A program made the translations under genes and the position numbers. The notes beneath the pieces were generated by a model. It ran no database searches. It was not told where the DNA came from and saw only the letters and a program-made list of their open reading frames with translations. Shown piece by piece: positions 11,341 through 64,000 of a stretch of 64,000 nucleotides of DNA (position 1 is the stretch's first letter; every line of letters begins with the position of its first letter). The DNA comes from a virus. The DNA lies in the IMG/VR virus record IMGVR_UViG_3300036790_000270, positions 32,001-96,000 of that record; one strand, 5' to 3'.

Positions 11341-11394
11341 TGCGGTCCCGGCGTGCATCCTTTGGGTTACGTCCGTGGGGTGGCCGGGACCGCA
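11341..11394 (-). ncRNA. solo TIGR-like unit closed by a perfect 12-bp stem
   Basis: On +: tgcggtcccggc-g-tgcatcctt-tgggttacg-tccgtgggg-tg-gccgggaccgca. Confidence 0.7.
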
Positions 11395-15263: not shown

Positions 15264-15310
15264 CCGGATGGCGTTGGAACGCTGGGTTTCGTGTGCTCTT
15301 TGGCCTCCGG
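15264..15310 (-). ncRNA. solo TIGR-like unit
   Basis: On +: ccggatggc-g-ttggaacgc-tgggtttcg-tgtgctctt-tg-gcctccgg (bulged stem). Confidence 0.65.
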
Positions 15311-16676: not shown

Positions 16677-16724
16677 CTGCCGGGCGTAGGTCGTATGGGT
16701 TCCGTAACTGCATTGGCCCGGCAG
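16677..16724 (-). ncRNA. solo TIGR-like unit closed by a perfect 9-bp stem
   Basis: On +: ctgccgggc-g-taggtcgta-tgggttccg-taactgcat-tg-gcccggcag. Confidence 0.7.
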
Positions 16725-22334: not shown

Positions 22335-22446
22335 CCGTCGCGGGCGCAGCTCCTGTGGGCCTCGTTACGAAGTTGGCCTGCGGCGGTCAGCTGCGAGCAC
22401 TGCGGGCGTTGGCTGACTGGGTTTCGTTTCGAGAGTGGCCCGCGGT
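22330..22446 (-). ncRNA. two hairpin-closed TIGR-like units
   Basis: On +: cagctcctg-tgggcctcg-ttacgaagt and ttggctgac-tgggtttcg-tttcgagag. Each lies between GGGCG and TGGCC and is enclosed by inverted repeats. Confidence 0.7.
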
Positions 22447-35999: not shown

Positions 36000-36117
36000 G
36001 CCGGCGTCTGGGAGTTGGGTTTCGTAAACGACTTGGCCGGGCGTAGATTGATTGGGTCTCGCATGCGATATGGCCCCGGCGTAAGTAAGCTGGGTTTCGT
36101 GACCTGATTGGCCGGGA
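36000..36117 (-). repeat. TIGR-like mini-array, 3 units
   Basis: Spacer pairs on +: tctgggagt/taaacgact, tagattgat/catgcgata, taagtaagc/tgacctgat. Loops tgggt(t/c)tcg; edges tggcc..ggcg. Confidence 0.8.
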
Positions 36118-36965: not shown

Positions 36966-37023
36966 CGCCCGCGCCCGGCGTTACATGTTTGGGCCCCGCA
37001 AGTGGAATGGCCGGGCGCGGGCG
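36966..37023 (-). ncRNA. solo TIGR-like unit closed by a perfect 14-bp stem
   Basis: On +: cgcccgcgcccggc-g-ttacatgtt-tgggccccg-caagtggaa-tg-gccgggcgcgggcg. Confidence 0.75.
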
Positions 37024-41974: not shown

Positions 41975-42017
41975 CGGGGCCACAGAAGCAACGAGACCCA
42001 CAGTGCTAGCGCCCCGG
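41975..42017 (+). ncRNA. solo TIGR-like unit (+ orientation)
   Basis: cggggcca-cagaagcaa-cgagaccca-cagtgctag-cgccccg. Confidence 0.7.
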
Positions 42018-46580: not shown

Positions 46581-46632
46581 GTTAGCGAGGCCAAATTGGT
46601 GACGAGACCCATCGACCACACGCTCTGCTAAC
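46581..46632 (+). ncRNA. solo TIGR-like unit (+ orientation)
   Basis: gttagcgaggcca-aattggtga-cgagaccca-tcgaccaca-cgctctgctaac, with outer stem gttagc/gctaac. Confidence 0.65.
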
Positions 46633-50962: not shown

Positions 50963-51016
50963 GGGGATGGGGGGCCAATCAGGTAACGGGGCCCGTATGC
51001 CGCACGCCCGGTCCCC
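50963..51016 (+). ncRNA. solo TIGR-like unit (+ orientation, divergent loop)
   Basis: ggggcca-atcaggtaa-cggggcccg-tatgccgca-cgcccggtcccc. Confidence 0.55.
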
Positions 51017-51574: not shown

Positions 51575-51620
51575 GTCCCGGCCAACAAAAAAACGAGGCC
51601 CACAGCGGGAACGCCGGGGC
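51575..51620 (+). ncRNA. solo TIGR-like unit (+ orientation)
   Basis: gtcccggcca-acaaaaaaa-cgaggccca-cagcgggaa-cgccggggc. Confidence 0.7.
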
Positions 51621-58116: not shown

Positions 58117-58175
58117 GACCTGCTCCCTCCCGGAAATTGGTGGGCCCCCGCCCATGCCCAGGACGGGGGCCCGAT

Positions 58176-58246
58176 GACATCGGGGGACTTGAACCCCCAA
58201 CTTCAGTCTCCTAATGACTGCGCGCTACCAATTGCGCCAGGTGTCT
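58176..58246 (-). tRNA. atypical tRNA, anticodon UAG (Leu), short variable loop, weak acceptor stem
   Basis: On -: AGACACC TG GCGC AATTGGTA GCGC G CAGTC ATTAGGA GACTG AAGTT GGGGG TTCAAGT CCCCC GATGTC. No encoded CCA. Confidence 0.7.
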
Positions 58247-58290
58247 GTTTGGTGCCCTCAGTGTCGTTAAGGAACGGCAGGTCTTGCGAC

Positions 58291-58364
58291 GGGTAACGCT
58301 CTGCCGGCTGAGCTAGGGGACCATGCGGAGGTCCCCCGGGGGGTCGAACCCCGGACCTTTACCC
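58291..58364 (-). ncRNA. circularly permuted tRNA mimic (YrlA/Y-RNA-like module)
   Basis: On -: GGGTAA AGGTC CGGGG TTCGACC CCCCG GGGGACC TCCGCAT GGTCCCC TA GCTC AGCCGGCA GAGC G TTACCC. This gives T arm, loop-closed acceptor stem and D arm inside a GGGTAA/TTACCC stem. Confidence 0.75.
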
Positions 58365-58386
58365 TGGTACTACCGTCCTCGCGGGG

Positions 58387-58516: not shown

Positions 58517-58648
58517 GGCGGGCAAGGCGTCGCCAGTTTGGGTTTCGCCGTCGTCATGGCCTCACGCGCCGCACAAGCCGTTCCGCAGGCAGGGAGTAAG
58601 GCGTGTGGTTATTGGGTCTCGTCAGGTAGGTAGCCTCACGCCCCGCCT
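58517..58648 (-). ncRNA. two separate TIGR-like units
   Basis: On +: aggcg-tcgccagtt-tgggtttcg-ccgtcgtca-tggcct and aggcg-tgtggttat-tgggtctcg-tcaggtagg-tagcct. Confidence 0.65.
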
Positions 58649-58650
58649 TG

Positions 58651-59415
58651 CTACGGCCGCAGCAGCCAGGAGAAGATCTCCGCGCCCTCGTTCCGCTCGG
58701 TCACCGTCGCCGAGTTGGCTTCCTCCCGGGCCATCTTCACCGCGGTGCGCAGTGCCGACAGCCGGTCGAGCAGCTCCGCCTTCCGCTTCGCCTCCAGGGC
58801 GCCGGAGAAGCTCACCGTCGTGTTGTACTCGACGATCTCGTCGCGGGTCATCACGTCGACCTGCTCCTGGATCGTCGGGGTGCCGTTGCCGCGGTGCCAG
58901 TTGAACATGACCTTGTCCTTCAGGTCACCTTCCTGCGGGCGCACCGAGCGCCACTGGCCGGGCTCGGTGTTCTCATTCGTCCAGTCCTGCACCCCGTTCA
59001 GCACCGGGAGCGCCTGCACGATGGCGTGCAGCTTGGTGAGCTCGCCTTCCAGGTACACCAGGTGCCGGACCGGGACGTCGTGCATGACGGTGTGCGGCCC
59101 GACCACGACGTCCGCCTTCGCCGCGCCCTGGGCGGTGTCCAGGGTCAGCGCGGTGTCCCACTTGGCAGTCAGCAGCGTCTTCACGTCATCGAGGACCTGA
59201 ACCGCGGTGTAGGCGACCTTCTTCTTCACGTCGGGGGTCACCCGGCGGCGCTGGTGGTTCGGGTCGACGGAGTCACTCGCCGCGACCGACTCCTTCTCCA
59301 TCCCGCTGAACAGCTCCGGCTTGGCGACCACCTGGGACACCCGGGCGAGCGCCGTGTCGGTCTCGGTGTTAACCCCGCTGATGATCGCAAGCAGCTGGTG
59401 AATCCGGACGGGCAT
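58651..59415 (-). CDS. conserved hypothetical coiled-coil protein upstream of the ncRNA cluster
   Basis: AAGGAG RBS. AKADVVV...DVPV..L.YLE..L...LPVL...FSGAL...ELLDR...AVK.AREEAN recalls a widespread uncharacterised bacterial/phage family. Confidence 0.75.
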   Translation of the reverse strand: MPVRIHQLLAIISGVNTETDTALARVSQVVAKPELFSGMEKESVAASDSVDPNHQRRRVTPDVKKKVAYTAVQVLDDVKTLLTAKWDTALTLDTAQGAAKADVVVGPHTVMHDVPVRHLVYLEGELTKLHAIVQALPVLNGVQDWTNENTEPGQWRSVRPQEGDLKDKVMFNWHRGNGTPTIQEQVDVMTRDEIVEYNTTVSFSGALEAKRKAELLDRLSALRTAVKMAREEANSATVTERNEGAEIFSWLLRP

Positions 59416-59450: not shown

Positions 59451-59606
59451 ACCGGGCGTTACTACCTTGGGCCTCGTGTCTCGGGTGGCCCGGCGTCGTA
59501 CGTTTGGGTTACGTCTTGCTGGCCGGGGCGTTACTACCTTGGGCCTCGTGTCTGCGTTGGCCCCGGCGTTTGTGCTGTGGGCCTCGTCATGATGCTGGCC
59601 GGGACG
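59451..59606 (-). repeat. TIGR-like array, 4 units (one with a 6-nt spacer)
   Basis: Pairs on +: ttactacct/tgtctcggg, tcgtacgtt/tcttgc, ttactacct/tgtctgcgt, tttgtgctg/tcatgatgc. Confidence 0.8.
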
Positions 59607-59993: not shown

Positions 59994-60275
59994 TTACACG
60001 CTCTCGCCGGGCCGTGTCAGCGACTTAACCGAAGGCGCAGGCGATTTTGGTCTCGTGTCATCGTTGGCCTCCGTCTCGTCGCCGAGCACGCTGATTACCG
60101 CGTCCAGCACGTCGTCGGGCCGCTTCTCCGCGACCTTCAGCAGCACTGCCAGCAGCACCTCGCCGTCCGCGTCCAGCGCCAGGCGCCCGGATAGCAGCAG
60201 CCGGATCTTCTGCCGCACGTGCCGGTACGGTATTCCCTTGTCCGGGTCCGGCGCCCCGGCGTAACCACGTGGCAT
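59994..60275 (-). CDS. hypothetical protein
   Basis: ORF track; AAGGA upstream. The 3' end overlaps a degenerate TIGR-like unit at 60030-60073. Confidence 0.5.
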   Translation of the reverse strand: MPRGYAGAPDPDKGIPYRHVRQKIRLLLSGRLALDADGEVLLAVLLKVAEKRPDDVLDAVISVLGDETEANDDTRPKSPAPSVKSLTRPGESV

Positions 60276-60285
60276 CGCACTGTCC

Positions 60286-61242
60286 TTACCGGCGGGCCTG
60301 CTCCAGCGCCTGGTGCGCCTTAGACAGGGCCAGCAGGTTGCCGTCCTTGCCGGGCAGCGGCAGGAAGTCCGGCACCGAGCTGGCCGCGAAGTACTTCAGG
60401 CCGGTCCGCGGGCGCACGTCGAAGTTCGGGTTCACCCGGGCGTAGTTCTCATTGCGGGCGTGCTTGTTCCACGCGGTGGTGAACGCGTACAGCTCCATCA
60501 GCCGCTTGTCGGCTGGCAGCCGGTCCCGGACCGTGCCGAGCAGCAGCCAGTTGTGCAGGGTAAGCGCCGGGTTGCCCCGGTCCAGGTTGGCGCCGGTGCG
60601 CACCGACTCCCAGAAGCCGTCCGGGTCAATCTTGGTGACCGTGCCGTCCTCGTCGCGCTCCGCCGTCCGCATGATCGCGTACCCGGCGACCGACGGGTTG
60701 GCCCGCACCGCCCGGTACAGCGCCTCGCCCCGGTGGATCGCGTCGGTGATTCCCGGTGCGTCCACCCACGCGTCCTGTGACGCCCGGGTCAGCGCCTGCT
60801 TGCCGGGGTTACGCACCCCGTCGATGCCGTAGTTCTCGTACAGCGCCATGTACTTGGCGAGCACCGAGGCCCGCTTGTAATCGGGTATCGCCAGCATCCG
60901 CAGGGTGTCCGCGTAGGTGCGCTTGCGGCCCGTGTCGATGTACTCGGCCTCCTCTGTGGTGATGCCCCGGATGAACGGCAGGTACGTGGCGATGCCGGTC
61001 CGGATGATCGCCGCGAAGCGGTGCTGGCCGTCCCAGGCCCGGTCCGCGTCGTCCAGGTAAACGGGGCTGATCCCCGGGAAGAACGTGCCCTCCCGCAGGT
61101 TCAGCTCCATCACCGCGGTATCCAGCTTCGACTGGCTGCGGTTGGCGTGCATCGTCTTCAGGTACCGCTCGGCGTCCTTCGGCGTCACCAGCGTCATCTC
61201 AAAGGTGACGTGCGCCGGGAACGGGACTTCGGTACTGGTCAC
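60286..61242 (-). CDS. ParB/Srx-fold DGQHR-motif protein
   Basis: GTG at 61242 after AGGAGG. VTP..AE.YL...NR...DGQHRFAAI...IDTGRKRT..D.L. Confidence 0.8.
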   Translation of the reverse strand: MTSTEVPFPAHVTFEMTLVTPKDAERYLKTMHANRSQSKLDTAVMELNLREGTFFPGISPVYLDDADRAWDGQHRFAAIIRTGIATYLPFIRGITTEEAEYIDTGRKRTYADTLRMLAIPDYKRASVLAKYMALYENYGIDGVRNPGKQALTRASQDAWVDAPGITDAIHRGEALYRAVRANPSVAGYAIMRTAERDEDGTVTKIDPDGFWESVRTGANLDRGNPALTLHNWLLLGTVRDRLPADKRLMELYAFTTAWNKHARNENYARVNPNFDVRPRTGLKYFAASSVPDFLPLPGKDGNLLALSKAHQALEQARR

Positions 61243-61341
61243 GCGGTCCTCCTGAAAAGGGGATAGCAGAAGTTGTGTCATGGCTGCTCGGAACAAGCTG
61301 GCTGCGGTATCTATTCCGCGTCAGGGCCACCGCCCTCGCGA

Positions 61342-61594
61342 GCCCCGCAGGCGTCACGGGAATGGGTTTCGTGTCGACTTTGGCCTGCCAGGGGCCGGCG
61401 TTCTACCTGTGGGTTCCGTCCTCGGTTTGGCCGGGCGTTACTTGTTTGGGTCTCGTGAAGGCGTTGGCCCGGCGTGGTTCAGGCGGGTTCCGTGCTCGGT
61501 TTGGCCTGGCGCTGTGCCGCTGGGTTCCGTGAAGTAGTTGGCCGGGCCCGGCGTAACATCATTGGGTTCCGCCTCACTTTTGGCCGGGCCCGCG
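61342..61594 (-). repeat. TIGR-like array, 6 units
   Basis: Six tgggt(t/c)(c/t)cg-type loops, each flanked by two 9-nt spacers and tggcc..ggcg edges. Confidence 0.85.
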
Positions 61595-61600
61595 CCAGGC

Positions 61601-61741
61601 TTACTGCATCGCCCCGCAGCCGTTAGCCAGGCAGATATGGCGCCCGTCGTGGTTAACGTCGTCCCCGCACCGGTGCAGGCTGCCCGGGTGGGCCGGCTCC
61701 TTCAGCGTCCCCCAGCTGTGCCCGCATGCTCTTACTGCCAT
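61601..61741 (-). CDS. tiny Cys/His-rich peptide (46 aa) between two arrays
   Basis: GGAGAAGGAG RBS; MAVRACGHSWGTLKEPAHPGSLHRCGDDVNHDGRHICLANGCGAMQ. Confidence 0.6.
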   Translation of the reverse strand: MAVRACGHSWGTLKEPAHPGSLHRCGDDVNHDGRHICLANGCGAMQ

Positions 61742-61760
61742 CAGCTTCTCCTTCTCCGGG

Positions 61761-62088
61761 TGCCCGGCGTTTGCCTTTTGGGTCTCGTAGGCCGTATGGC
61801 CGGGCCCGGCGTGGCGACATTGGGTCCCGTCAAGCTTGATGGCCGGGCCCGGCGTTTGTGGACTGGGTCTCGTGAGGACTATGGCCGGGCGTGATGGATT
61901 TGGGTCTCGTGTCTCAGATGGCCCGGCGTTGTCCTGTTGGGTTCCGTGTCGACTTTGGCCGGGCGTTACTGTCGTGGGTTCCGTTGCTCGGTTGGCCCGG
62001 CGTGCATCCAATGGGTTCCGTGAACTTGATGGCCGGGCAGCACGGCGGCGGCGTTCCAGGAATGGGTTCCGTTACTACACTGGCCGCC
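61761..62088 (-). repeat. TIGR-like array, 8 units, directly downstream of the Tas-like gene
   Basis: Eight loop repeats with 9-nt (one 10-nt) spacer pairs. Edges tggccgggcg, tggcccggcg or tggccgggcccggcg. Confidence 0.9.
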
Positions 62089-62094
62089 TGCCCG

Positions 62095-62982
62095 CTACCG
62101 GCCGCGGTGCCGTCCCCGGTTCTCCTCCCCCACCCGGACCGTCCCGTACACCGGCGCGTCCCCGGCTGCCGTCAGCCACAGGTCCCGCAGGATCTCCTTA
62201 CCGGTGTGCCGCAGCCCGATCGCGTGCACGTGCGACTTCTGGTACGGGTCCCCGGCCAGGGCGTAACCGAGCTTCACCTTGCCGCCGGCCGCGTCATCCG
62301 GGGTTGCCAGCGGGTCAGTGTCATCAGGGACGTGCGTCTTGCACTTGACGTACAGCTTCCCGCTGTACCCGCCCACGCAGTCCCGGGTGTGCACCCGCCC
62401 GCTGTAGGCTGCCTTCACGTCGTCGTAGACCTTCCGGTACCCGGTACCCGCCTTCGCGGTGCTCTTCACCTGCGCGACCGACATCAGGTAGACCAGCTTC
62501 TTCGCGTCGGGGCGCCCGTTGGCCATCAGCGCGTCCGCGTCGCCCTTCACGTTCCGGTTCTTCGGCGCGCCCACTGAGCAGTATTGCCACAGCTCGCCCA
62601 CCCCCCGCGGGTGCTCCTCGTCGTCGATCAGGTGCCGCCCCGGGCCCTCGCCCTCCCAGTGCCGCGGGGAGGCCGTCCGCGGGTCACCGGTGATGCCCAG
62701 CAGCCGGGCCAGGGTATGCTCGCCGATCCCCGCGCTCTCCTGCTGCCAGCGCTGCACGCTTTCCGGCACCGTCATCCGGTAGCAGGCCGTCAGCTCCGCC
62801 TCCAGCCGCTTCTCCGCCTCCTTGTACAGCTCCAGCACCGGGCCGAGCGCGTCCAGCGTCACCGTCCCCGACCGCTTGGTGTTCTCGAACGCGATCCGGG
62901 CGGCCTGCGCGTCCGCGAACTCCTCCGCCCACATCCGCAGCTCGGTGTACGAGCCCGGGTTGGTGCGCCTGACATTCGTCAT
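62095..62982 (-). CDS. tasA: TasA-like IS110/Nop-domain RNA-binding protein without nuclease domain
   Basis: N-terminal coiled coil (D.Q..RIAFEN), GIGEHTLARLLG, LWQYCSVG, YRKVYD..K, H..GLR..GKEILRDLW. No RuvC (DEDD) or HNH region. Flanked by dual-spacer arrays. AAGGAG RBS. Confidence 0.8.
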   Translation of the reverse strand: MTNVRRTNPGSYTELRMWAEEFADAQAARIAFENTKRSGTVTLDALGPVLELYKEAEKRLEAELTACYRMTVPESVQRWQQESAGIGEHTLARLLGITGDPRTASPRHWEGEGPGRHLIDDEEHPRGVGELWQYCSVGAPKNRNVKGDADALMANGRPDAKKLVYLMSVAQVKSTAKAGTGYRKVYDDVKAAYSGRVHTRDCVGGYSGKLYVKCKTHVPDDTDPLATPDDAAGGKVKLGYALAGDPYQKSHVHAIGLRHTGKEILRDLWLTAAGDAPVYGTVRVGEENRGRHRGR

Positions 62983-63000
62983 TTCCTTTTCTCCTTGCGA

Positions 63001-63645
63001 TGGCCGGCGTATTGTGTACGGGTTCCGTCGTGTGCATGGCCGCCGGGGCGTTAACAGGGTGGGTTCCGTGAGGCAGTTGGCCCGGCGTTGTTCTCTTGGG
63101 TTCCGTTGCTCGATTTGGCCGGGCCTGGCGTTAGCTAGTTGGGTTCCGTGAGGCAGTTGGCCGGGCGTTAACGTGGTGGGTTCCGTGACTCGGTTGGCCG
63201 GGCGTTACTGCCCTGGGTTCCGTGTGCCTGTTGGCCCGGCGTCGTGATTTTTGGGTTCCGTACCTGAAGTGGCCGGGCGTCATGTTTTTGGGTTCCGTGG
63301 AAGCGGTGGCCCGGCGTCATGGCATTGGGCCTCGTTACGGTGGTGGCCGGGCGTGCAGTCATTGGGTTTCGTTACTCAGTTGGCCCGGCGTGCGTCCAAT
63401 GGGCTCCGTTGGAGTGGTGGCCGGGCGTTCAGCCATTGGGTCTCGTTAACTCAGTTGGCCCGGCGTGACCAGTATGGGTTCCGTTACGTAGCTGGCCGGG
63501 CGATACCTGATTGGGTTCCGCGGGAGTGGTGGCCCGGCGTGGGTCGCATGGGTTCCGTAACGGGTTTGGCCGGGCGTAACACCGATGGGTCTCGTTGCGT
63601 GGTTGGCCTGGCGCCCGGACACCGGGTTCCGTCATGCGGCCGGCC
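63001..63645 (-). repeat. TIGR-like array, 17 units of about 37 nt, directly upstream of the Tas-like gene
   Basis: On +: (tggccgggcg or tggcccggcg)-N9-tgggttccg-N9. 34 spacers, of which 31 are 9 nt and 3 are 10 nt. Confidence 0.93.
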
Positions 63646-64000
63646 TAGGCGCCCACCGGGGCGTCCTGCCCCAGCAGGCTGTCCGGCAGCGCGCCGAACC
63701 GGTCCGCGTAATCATCCAGGTCGGGGCAGCCCGCCTGCGCCAGCAGCGCCGCCGCGCTCTCGTGCCGGGCGATCGTCGCGTCCGCCCCGCTGACGTACCG
63801 GCGCTTGCACTCGCGCAGGAACGCGGCCCGCAGCCGGTGGTGCTCCGGGGTCAGCCGCCCCCAGGGAACCTGCCCCTGGCCCGGCACGTAGCAGGTCTCG
63901 CCGAGCAGCCGCCGCATCGCGTCCTCCGCCGGGTTGGTGTAGGCGGCCAGCTCACCGCGGACCGCCGGCGGGGCGGAGCTGAACGCCCGCTTCTCGCTGC
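63645..64000 (-). CDS. hypothetical protein, probably 5'-truncated by the window edge
   Basis: ORF 63645-63917 stays open upstream (...VRGELAAYTNPAEDAMRRLLG...). Its stop abuts the array. Confidence 0.55.
   Translation of the reverse strand, partial: SEKRAFSSAPPAVRGELAAYTNPAEDAMRRLLGETCYVPGQGQVPWGRLTPEHHRLRAAFLRECKRRYVSGADATIARHESAAALLAQAGCPDLDDYADRFGALPDSLLGQDAPVGA

Follow-up and report, generated by a model that had tools for sequence, protein, structure and literature searches.

What does a virus encode where a gene for a protein of 295 amino acids (aa) is set among arrays of short repeats and variable spacers? The question arises in a stretch of 64,000 nt (the window), which corresponds to positions 32,001-96,000 of the record IMGVR_UViG_3300036790_000270; all coordinates are those of the window unless marked as genome. 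A sequence-only reading of positions 60286-63645 had proposed a locus of the TIGR-Tas type (TIGR for tandem interspaced guide RNA), built around a nuclease-free protein. The present analysis leads, with a probability of about 0.8, to the assignment of this locus to the TIGR-TasA systems of the tasA-tasParB subtype, in a soil phage of about 117 kb. Its parts are ordered along the minus strand as array 1, tasA, array 2, array 3 and a gene for a ParB-like protein, and it is this partner gene that places the locus in the tasA-tasParB subtype. The 318-aa ParB-like gene was included in the span of the sequence-only reading and left unmentioned, and the repeats run beyond that span.

The layout, the nuclease-free effector and the ParB-like partner are already described (2025), and the activity of TasA has been shown (2026). 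The additions brought by this genome are dispersed stem-closed units, the lack of self targets, spacers of low GC content and re-used half-spacers, which are leads on open TIGR questions (natural targets, spacer origin, role of the ParB-like protein) and not a new system. The phage genome, obtained from soil, measures 117,211 bp with a GC content of about 67% (CheckV 82%). It is referred to as G000 in comparisons with two relatives, G001 (122 kb, CheckV 100%) and G002 (84 kb, CheckV 59%). A further set of 50 viral loci encoding TasA homologues (L001 and so on) was searched by tblastn. One of them, L001, encodes a TasA 68% identical and displays the same order: upstream gene, array, tasA, array, ParB-like gene. 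A megablast search of 60000-64000 against 50,697 phage records returned no match.

Three arrays of dual-spacer units

When anchored on the loop motif, 31 minus-strand units are counted within 61342-63645. Array 1 (63001-63645, 17 units) lies directly upstream of tasA, array 2 (61761-62088, 8 units) between tasA and a small open reading frame (ORF), and array 3 (61342-61594, 6 units) upstream of the ParB-like gene. Numbers and positions are those given by the sequence-only reading, and Tandem Repeats Finder detects periods of 37, 43, 74 and 112 at the same places. Column counts over the 31 units yield a unit of about 37 nt, GGCCA-N8-A-CGRRRCCCA-N8-A-CGCC plus one junction base. The overall layout first proposed is thus retained with two corrections: each variable stretch of nine bases consists of 8 free bases and an A, and the loop reads CGRRRCCCA and is not always CGGAACCCA. 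The spacing is exactly 37 nt for 20 units, and short extra edge-like pieces are inserted where it amounts to 38, 41, 42, 43, 47 or 51 nt.

The GGCCA at the start of the unit is nearly fixed and the CGCC at its end is present in 30-31 of the 31 units. All 31 loops have CG and CCC, their three middle bases being variable (mostly GGAA, also GAGA, GAAA and GAGG). CCA stands ahead of both spacers in 28-31 units and CG after both in 30-31. As the ninth spacer base is an A in 29/31 units for spacer A and in 27/31 for spacer B, only 8 bases per spacer vary freely. The two repeats, of 10-11 nt, can be written A-CGCC-S-GGCCA for the edge and A-CGRRRCCCA for the loop. In the accessible parts of Faure et al. 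2025, on which all citations of that work rest here, both repeats of a TIGR unit have box D (UG in TasR) at their start and box C (CCA) at their end, and the box motifs may differ between systems while agreeing between edge and loop. Both repeats end in CCA and start with (A)CG in the phage, so the rule holds with CG as box D. Together with the profile and fold results given below, this upholds the proposed succession of edge, spacer A, loop and spacer B as well as the TasA subtype.

Pairing is possible between the GGC at the 5' end of a unit and the GCC at the opposite end. The base joining CGCC to GGCCA is C and G in turn, along 11 successive junctions in array 1, so that every edge core GCC-S-GGC is reverse-complementary to the one that follows; complementary junction bases flank 22/31 array units. 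Successive edges could accordingly form a stem of up to 7 pairs around the unit in a precursor RNA.

A weight matrix was built from the 31 array units, which score 18-43 bits in array 1, and two reversed (not complemented) sequences served as controls. At all thresholds between 8 and 16 bits it retrieves 58 sites in the genome of 117,211 bp, 54 of them on the minus strand and 4 on the plus strand, and 53 and 52 minus-strand sites are left at the stricter thresholds of 18 and 20 bits. No site is found in either control at any threshold from 8 to 16 bits. With 58 genome sites against none, base composition does not account for the pattern, which is real. All three arrays are found on the strand of tasA, as are the sites of L001 (23) and L002 (8), with none opposite. 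In the 50 viral loci, the generic double-box pattern CCA-N9-YG has 446 occurrences on the tas strand as compared with 82 on the opposite one. The arrays differ from CRISPR arrays by their two distinct repeats of 10-11 nt and spacers of 8-9 nt, and PADLOC reported nothing for four neighbouring proteins. An Rfam search of the arrays at E<=1 gave no match, and one promoter-like site was found versus 0.4 expected.

The TasA protein

An ORF check gives a gene of 295 aa at 62095-62982 on the minus strand, co-oriented with the arrays as first described. Its product is TasA, made up solely of a coiled coil and a Nop domain. NCBIfam NF052498, named 'TIGR-Tas system RNA-guided endonuclease', matches it with an E-value of 5.9e-23 over profile positions 1-213 of 215, and this is the sole match of that family in the genome. 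A profile of 51 homologues recovers TasR (9mty, E 3.4e-15) and TasH (E 3.5e-12), the next matches being at E 0.46. In a large protein collection 119 homologues were found, none of them named.

The AlphaFold model (pLDDT 89.2, pTM 0.85) agrees with the sequence profiles. Two helices, 12-38 and 43-71, with pLDDT above 89, are aligned with the coiled coil of TasR and TasH, which is a dimerisation element. The Foldseek comparison suggested by the sequence-only reading places TasH and TasR chains in all ten first positions (E 1.4e-7 to 3.4e-6), followed by the IS110-family proteins ISCro4 (E 3.7e-4) and IS621 (E 3.3e-3), and the expected Nop-fold similarity is present. Among the 48,161 representative chains searched with VIA-align, TasR comes first with a Z score of 16.8 (root-mean-square deviation 2.5 over 186 residues, 24% identity over the aligned residues). 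It is followed by TasH (Z 16.1) and ISCro4 (Z 13.8); Nop5 is retrieved at Z 8.1 and 7.2 over 145-154 residues. The matches below the first three are mostly coiled-coil look-alikes of residues 7-85. The fold alignments begin at residue 112 of TasR and residue 66 of TasH, past the nuclease domains of these proteins, and Pfam at E<=1 gives no match, be it HNH, RuvC or the IS110 catalytic domain. Both the IS110/Nop-like character of the protein and its lack of a nuclease domain, as read from its motifs, are therefore confirmed.

The same comparisons bear on the idea that the gene is what is left of an IS110-family transposase, or a relative of one, with repeats that would be transposon-related instead of DNA-binding guides. 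Such an origin is suggested by the match of TasA to phrog_4285, annotated 'transposase' in PHROGs (E 2.5e-29), and by the position of IS110 recombinases as the next-best folds after Tas. It is opposed by the Tas structures, which outscore IS110 by sequence profile and by fold, and by the extent of the protein, which covers only the coiled-coil and RNA-binding part; the ISCro4 alignment spans residues 124-321 of that chain only. Moreover, tasA is present in single copy in the genome, and IS110 elements have one bridge RNA and not arrays of 6-17 units (Faure et al. 2025). This explanation is scarcely credible, and the gene is treated as tasA in what follows.

The homologues differ in the spacing of the units beside them. 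It is about 37 nt in L001, L002, L005, L012 and L024. Distant homologues (27-40% identity; L004, L006, L008, L023, L030 and others) are accompanied by tas-strand double-box units about 57-60 nt apart. Both array architectures are thus found within one TasA family.

The ParB-like partner

The tasParB-like gene (60286-61242, minus strand, 318 aa) is found downstream of array 3; its likeliest start is the GTG at 61242, and the collection's own call is P0120. The model of the protein (pLDDT 90.9) displays an N-terminal domain of the ParB/Srx fold, residues 8-105, inside which lies a WDGQHRF motif. VIA-align retrieves PadC (Z 6.6), pNOB8 ParB (6.3), sulfiredoxin (6.1) and KorB (6.0); the first eight rows, from Z 6.6 down to 3.8 for Osa, are all of the ParB/Srx fold and concern residues 8-105. 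Foldseek points weakly to ParB, Noc, PadC and Srx (best E 9e-3), and ESM Atlas provides ParB_N as a lead only. The remaining 200 residues or so form a helical C-terminal part with no clear match. No sequence match was obtained from Pfam (including ParB_N), NCBIfam, PADLOC or a PDB profile search, and PHROGs assigns the protein only to phrog_5931, of unknown function.

The association with tasA is visible in the homologues. The TasA and ParB-like homologue lists have 16 same-sized contigs in common, and one homologue pair carries the adjacent locus tags VGG75_13900 and VGG75_13905. As the 52 ParB-like homologues are all at least 41% identical, and the gene is detected by tblastn in only 3/50 TasA-homologue loci (L001, L002 and L017, the last at 27% identity), the partner is confined to the close TasA subclade. 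In Faure et al. 2025, tasParB shares operons with tasA, arrays being found on the upstream and downstream sides as well as between the two genes, and the role of the ParB-like partner is treated as an open question.

This role is the point at which a second explanation must be considered, according to which TasA finds the site and the ParB/Srx-fold protein cuts or modifies it, so that the pair would be the two-protein equivalent of TasR or TasH and not a silencer. The partner gene stays beside tasA in close relatives, and 14 columns are invariant in 37 ParB-like homologues. Eleven of these, in residues 24-108 (including D71, H74, R75, N34, R35, S38, D103 and R108), fall in the ParB/Srx domain, as would suit an active pocket. 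Enzymes are also found among its structural neighbours, namely sulfiredoxin, a serine kinase, Osa and the N-terminal domains of SspE and BrxU. Its best matches, PadC, pNOB8 ParB and KorB, are nevertheless CTP-binding or DNA-clamp members, and no nuclease family matches it by sequence. HHpred matches of tasParB to ParB domains, including ParB-like CTPases, are reported in Faure et al. 2025, and a TasA of another lineage represses on its own without cutting: in the available text of the Xu et al. 2026 preprint it is a reversible RNA-guided repressor, with target binding by MbTasA observed in electrophoretic mobility shift assays. A cutting or modifying partner is accordingly judged improbable. 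That the system is non-cutting is something we infer, as a ParB/Srx-fold partner could have an activity of its own.

Dispersed units

Of the 58 sites located in the genome by the weight matrix, 27 are outside the three arrays, singly or in groups of 2-3. They comprise 3 units at 59455-59600, 2 at 58526-58635, 1 degenerate site at 60034-60069, 13 units elsewhere in the window and 8 beyond it, at genome 107217-114612. Outside the surroundings of the locus, the units of the window are distributed as follows. Minus-strand single units are located at 11350-11385 (closing stem extended by 9 pairs, antisense between plus-strand genes), 15270-15305 (between plus-strand genes), 16683-16718 (stem extended by 7 pairs, with a unit in the syntenic gap of G002) and 36977-37012 (stem extended by 11 pairs). 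Two minus-strand units at 22343-22440 occupy the junction after an ORF of 1836 aa, and the syntenic gaps of G001 and G002 hold one unit each. A minus-strand mini-array of three units is present at 36003-36113, with a unit in the syntenic gap of G001. The plus-strand units are single and are found at 41978-42013 (between plus-strand genes), at 46589-46624 and 50973-51008 (both by weight matrix), and at 51580-51615, where the unit overlaps a called ORF of 79 aa.

A total of 24/27 dispersed units lie outside the called ORFs and nearly fill short intergenic gaps. The custom ORF caller used here, based on a greedy choice of frames with high GC at the third codon position and more GC at the first than at the second, is crude and covers 73% of the genome. 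The strand of tasA is shared by 23/27 units. The four plus-strand units are situated in a block of plus-strand genes (genome 69922-89027), each with at least one plus-strand flanking gene; two are between plus-strand genes, and a short minus-strand ORF from the same caller (82 aa) adjoins the other two on one side.

With their flanks, the dispersed units gain on average 4.0 contiguous pairs, and up to 11, beyond the GGC/GCC stem, as compared with 0.89 +/- 0.27 pairs (maximum 1.65 in 200 trials) when the flanks are re-paired. In order to examine this stem across the relatives, 64 dispersed units were aligned (28 from G000, of which the row 46435+ is doubtful, 27 from G001 and 9 from G002); one G001 unit straddling the locus boundary was left out. 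In a closing helix of 13 pairs, 74.4% of the cells are paired versus 53.6 +/- 1.4% in shuffles. Covariation reaches 0.456, versus 0.154 in shuffles (none of 500 attaining the observed value) and 0.11-0.16 with slid partners. The four pairs beside GGC/GCC are paired in 50-59 of the 64 rows, with 17-25 double-sided changes each; these changes are not all independent, as some rows are members of mini-arrays flanked by neighbouring edge repeats. TIGR units closed by stems, whose flanks are palindromic and whose loop is conserved in some loci, have been described (Faure et al. 2025).

The relatives possess such units as well. A relaxed pattern yields 35 reverse and 4 forward sites in G001, 20 and 5 in G002, and 1 in each control. 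Both flanking genes could be located in G001 for 11/20 gap rows of G000, one pair of which, about 77 kb apart, is uninformative. Eight distinct gaps with flanks within 4 kb resulted, four holding units and four holding none. Units are present in 3/5 such gaps of G002.

These data must be set against the possibility that the 27 dispersed units are not guides. They would then be decayed or copied array fragments, or intergenic hairpins sharing the Tas-binding boxes and serving as terminators, RNA-stability signals or processing signals, and only the three arrays would supply guides. The units are mostly single, their GC-rich closing stems of up to 14 pairs would serve as plain hairpins, three of them are antisense to the flanking genes, four of the eight informative gaps of G001 lack a unit, and none has a known target. 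On the other hand, boxes and loop are kept as in the arrays (22-40 bits versus 18-43), together with the conserved A after each spacer. The GC content of the dispersed spacers (0.50) is close to that of array spacers (0.52) and lower than that of the genome (0.67) or of the sequence outside called ORFs (0.64). The strand bias described above, with the four exceptions in a plus-strand gene block, is also in favor of guides, as are the conformity of the units to the described stem-closed form and the presence in one of them of a whole spacer B shared with array unit 61923. A role other than guide for these units therefore seems doubtful to us, although it deserves to be kept in mind.

If they are guides, the dispersed units matter for annotation pipelines that scan only the surroundings of tas genes; the published TIGR array finder, as far as its available description goes, works around tas loci only. 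They also bear on the reported 'arrayless' Tas lineages, as these appear in the accessible literature. No mention of units dispersed over a genome was found in the portions of the TIGR-Tas literature that could be searched, which does not amount to a claim that dispersal is unpublished.

Spacer composition and re-use

The low GC content of the spacers extends to the two relatives (0.50 and 0.49), the genomes of the three phages being at 0.66-0.68. The spacers are rich in A and C on the RNA strand. Such a composition suggests that the targets are richer in AT or that the guide itself is under a constraint. None of the 8-nt spacers in L001 and L002 is identical to one of the studied phage.

Within the phage, some half-spacers are used twice. 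Two pairs of units have an identical 8-base spacer A (0.086 expected from column shuffles) and two an identical 8-base spacer B (0.058 expected), for a total of 4 identical 8-mers versus 0.14 expected. The sharing pairs are 63162/63082, 61960/61385, 61923 with genome 108314 (76314 in window numbering, the dispersed unit mentioned above) and 59562/59490. Their other halves agree in 0-5 of 8 positions, which suggests half-unit exchange at the conserved repeats or targets with a common half site.

The locus is contained in two other soil metagenomes, with 90% and 63% of the sampled words. In a 1,742-nt contig from one of them, array 1 differs by two joints (one skipping 163 nt, the other going back 137 nt) and by clustered substitutions, the differences being located at 63344-63556. 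A single change is listed for the tasA part (62626-62982) of this near-identical strain. As these are assembled contigs of low depth (about 7), the difference in array 1 is a hint only.

Proposed mode of action

The working of the system can be outlined by analogy with the characterized Tas proteins. Transcription of the arrays would go with that of the operon, and cleavage at the edge repeats would release RNAs of about 36-37 nt, in each of which the 5' GGC would pair with the 3' GCC. Each of the two repeats, edge and loop, would bind one protomer of a TasA dimer through its box C (CCA) and box D (CG); TasR and TasH, as described in the accessible sources, use one tigRNA per dimer and read both DNA strands. 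At an adjoining site of about 18 bp, one DNA strand may then be paired with spacer A and the other with spacer B. The target is expected to read as spacer A and then spacer B in reverse complement; this form was derived in this analysis from published cut positions, namely 8-nt 3' overhangs and the 'C - 5 rule' (Faure et al. 2025, where the tandem-spacer rule is also given), and agrees with that advanced in the sequence-only reading. TasA would bind this site without cutting and block transcription or replication there. The ParB-like protein may be a partner brought to the target, or loaded at it, by TasA, where it could be either an enzyme or a clamp switched by a nucleotide, spreading from the site and silencing it. 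The dispersed units would be extra guide genes, provided with their own flanking stems and transcribed within phage operons, and the targets would probably belong to the host or to unrelated mobile elements and not to the phage.

A number of observations weigh against the assignment and mode of action set out above. The score of TasA with NF052498, 82 bits, is below the curated cut-off of 100 bits; this speaks against equivalence with the nuclease-bearing members and not against homology. Processing of the pre-tigRNA by SpTasH involves Y289 and H296 on a C-terminal loop. The tail of TasA has Y279 and H292, with no clear counterpart of that Tyr/His pair: among 9 close relatives sharing the tail, of the form PV(Y/F)G..R.GEE.R...R.R, Y279 is replaced by Phe in 5, and the His is also lost in several. 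More distant homologues, many of which are beside units spaced about 57-60 nt, have short tails. Support for the ParB fold of the partner is modest, with Z scores of 6.0-6.6 over about 90 residues, Foldseek E-values of at least 9e-3 and no sequence-profile match. The RNA runs on record include none containing 61300-63700, and we infer the transcription and processing of the arrays for that reason. Of the 5 terminator-like sites (5.1 expected), every one is on the plus strand and none follows an array, which sets the locus apart from the typical arrays of Faure et al. 2025. To these must be added the three antisense minus-strand units, located between plus-strand genes.

The target searches weigh in the same direction. 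Spacer A joined to spacer B in reverse complement was looked for in either order, on both strands and with 0-2 bp between the halves. In a collection as large as 596 Gb, a single 18-mer is estimated to occur about 17 times by chance. In the phage's own genome, the 58 units give no match at 0-1 mismatch and one at 2 mismatches, the counts at 2 and 3 mismatches being like those of re-paired-half controls. The 122 units of the three phages, searched against all three genomes, give no match at up to 1 mismatch and 7 at 2 mismatches versus about 6.4 in controls. The search recommended in the sequence-only reading thus failed to reveal targets in the phage and its two relatives. As a consequence, guide function is left without support from the target side, and both self-regulation of the phage by full two-spacer pairing and mutual targeting among the three relatives are unlikely.

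Within the assignment to TIGR-TasA, a broader and tentative proposal, to which we give somewhat less than an even chance, is that one TasA serves a genome-wide set of guide genes, consisting of the 31 arrayed units and about 27 stem-closed units in operon gaps. Were this the case, guide output would be tied to the phage's own transcription program, and the excision of units could also cut polycistronic mRNA. New guides would arise by half-unit recombination at the conserved repeats, and the ParB-like protein would be an effector loaded at AT-richer target sites of the host.

Neighbouring genes

The minus-strand gene upstream of array 1 enters the window by its 3' part (63645-64000) and continues to about genome 96290 (46-690 in L051), for a length of up to 214 aa; it ends where array 1 begins. 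Homologues are detected by tblastn in 8/50 loci at E<=1e-3 and in 4/50 at E<=1e-5 (L001, L003, L005 and L012), and in these four loci they lie directly upstream of tas. No usable family was obtained for it from Pfam, PHROGs, PADLOC or ESM Atlas. The neighbourhood may thereby include a third conserved gene.

Between arrays 2 and 3, a minus-strand ORF of 46 aa rich in Cys and His (61601-61741) is preceded by a GGAGAAGGAGAA stretch. It has no match in Pfam, PHROGs or NCBIfam, and it may not be a gene, as no homologue was found by tblastn in the 50 related loci. Downstream of tasParB, a minus-strand ORF of 93 aa (59994-60275) is 59% identical over 69 aa to its counterpart in L001. It contains the degenerate unit-like site 60034-60069, also on the minus strand, which scores 22.5 bits and in which CAA replaces CCA.

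Next comes the minus-strand mini-array of three units at 59455-59600, upstream of a DUF7873 gene; the syntenic gap of G001 holds 11 units. The DUF7873 gene (58651-59415, minus strand, 254 aa; Pfam PF25283, E 6.8e-53) has units on both sides, and homologues are present in L001, with the same flanking mini-arrays, as well as in L002 and L024. The two minus-strand units on its other side were found by weight matrix at 58600-58635 (29.6 bits) and 58526-58561 (23.7 bits). Directly downstream of these last two units, a minus-strand tRNA-Leu gene (58173-58246; ARAGORN, anticodon tag; Rfam tRNA 48.3 bits) is adjoined by a minus-strand match to the Y RNA-like family YrlA (58268-58379). The latter covers the full model length and is sub-threshold, with 35.1 bits versus a gathering score of 69 (E 5.9e-5).

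Comparison with known systems

The nearest systems of known structure are the RNA-guided nucleases TaTasR (9MTY) and SpTasH (9W03, 9W04, 21KL). The phage locus shares with them the coiled coil and Nop fold, the unit of 36-37 nt made of edge, spacer A, loop and spacer B, the CCA of box C, and the occurrence of the same box in edge and loop, as required by a symmetric dimer. It departs from them by a protein devoid of RuvC or HNH domains, by CG instead of UG as box D and by a conserved A as ninth spacer base; the Tyr/His processing pair of SpTasH is not clearly present in the phage TasA.

More remote similarities are found with IS110 and IS621, which share the Nop-like RNA-binding domain, the coiled coil and the reading of two DNA strands by two guide halves. 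Unlike these elements, the phage locus has no catalytic domains, displays arrays in place of one bridge RNA and gives no sign of mobility. Nop5 (1NT2, 3NVM) is a distant relative with the same Nop fold and coiled-coil dimer, whose guide RNA likewise has paired box C/D motifs and two guide stretches. The phage TasA lacks the fibrillarin-binding N-terminal domain and the K-turn/L7Ae partner of that system, and its presumed target is DNA and not RNA. As for the partner, its N-terminal ParB/Srx fold is that of the CTP clamps ParB, Noc, KorB and PadC. The canonical ParB motif is the arginine patch GERRxR. In its place, the phage protein has DGQHR, and no helix-turn-helix or parS-binding domain is recognisable in it.

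The published tasA-tasParB loci, to which the phage locus is likened on the basis of their accessible description, are similar in their nuclease-free TasA and ParB-like gene, their arrays around and between the genes, their repeats of about 10 nt and their phage context, and no difference from them is shown. The identifiers of the relatives named here were not found in the searchable supplementary files of Faure et al. 2025, which is not taken to mean that the clade is unpublished.

Finally, the stem-loop TIGR systems (PlTasA, BlTasA, MbTasA and CsTasR, in the available texts of Faure et al. 2025, Xu et al. 2026 and the Guan et al. 2026 preprint) are alike in their nuclease-free TasA, and their units, like the dispersed units of the phage, are closed by variable palindromic flanks. 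In contrast to them, the phage combines arrays with edge repeats and stem-closed single units having one and the same loop, with a single tas gene and in one genome. Arrays with conserved loops and palindromic stems have been presented as a possible intermediate form (Faure et al. 2025). The coexistence in one phage of arrays and stem-closed singles with the same loop would constitute a living intermediate between the two described TIGR architectures.

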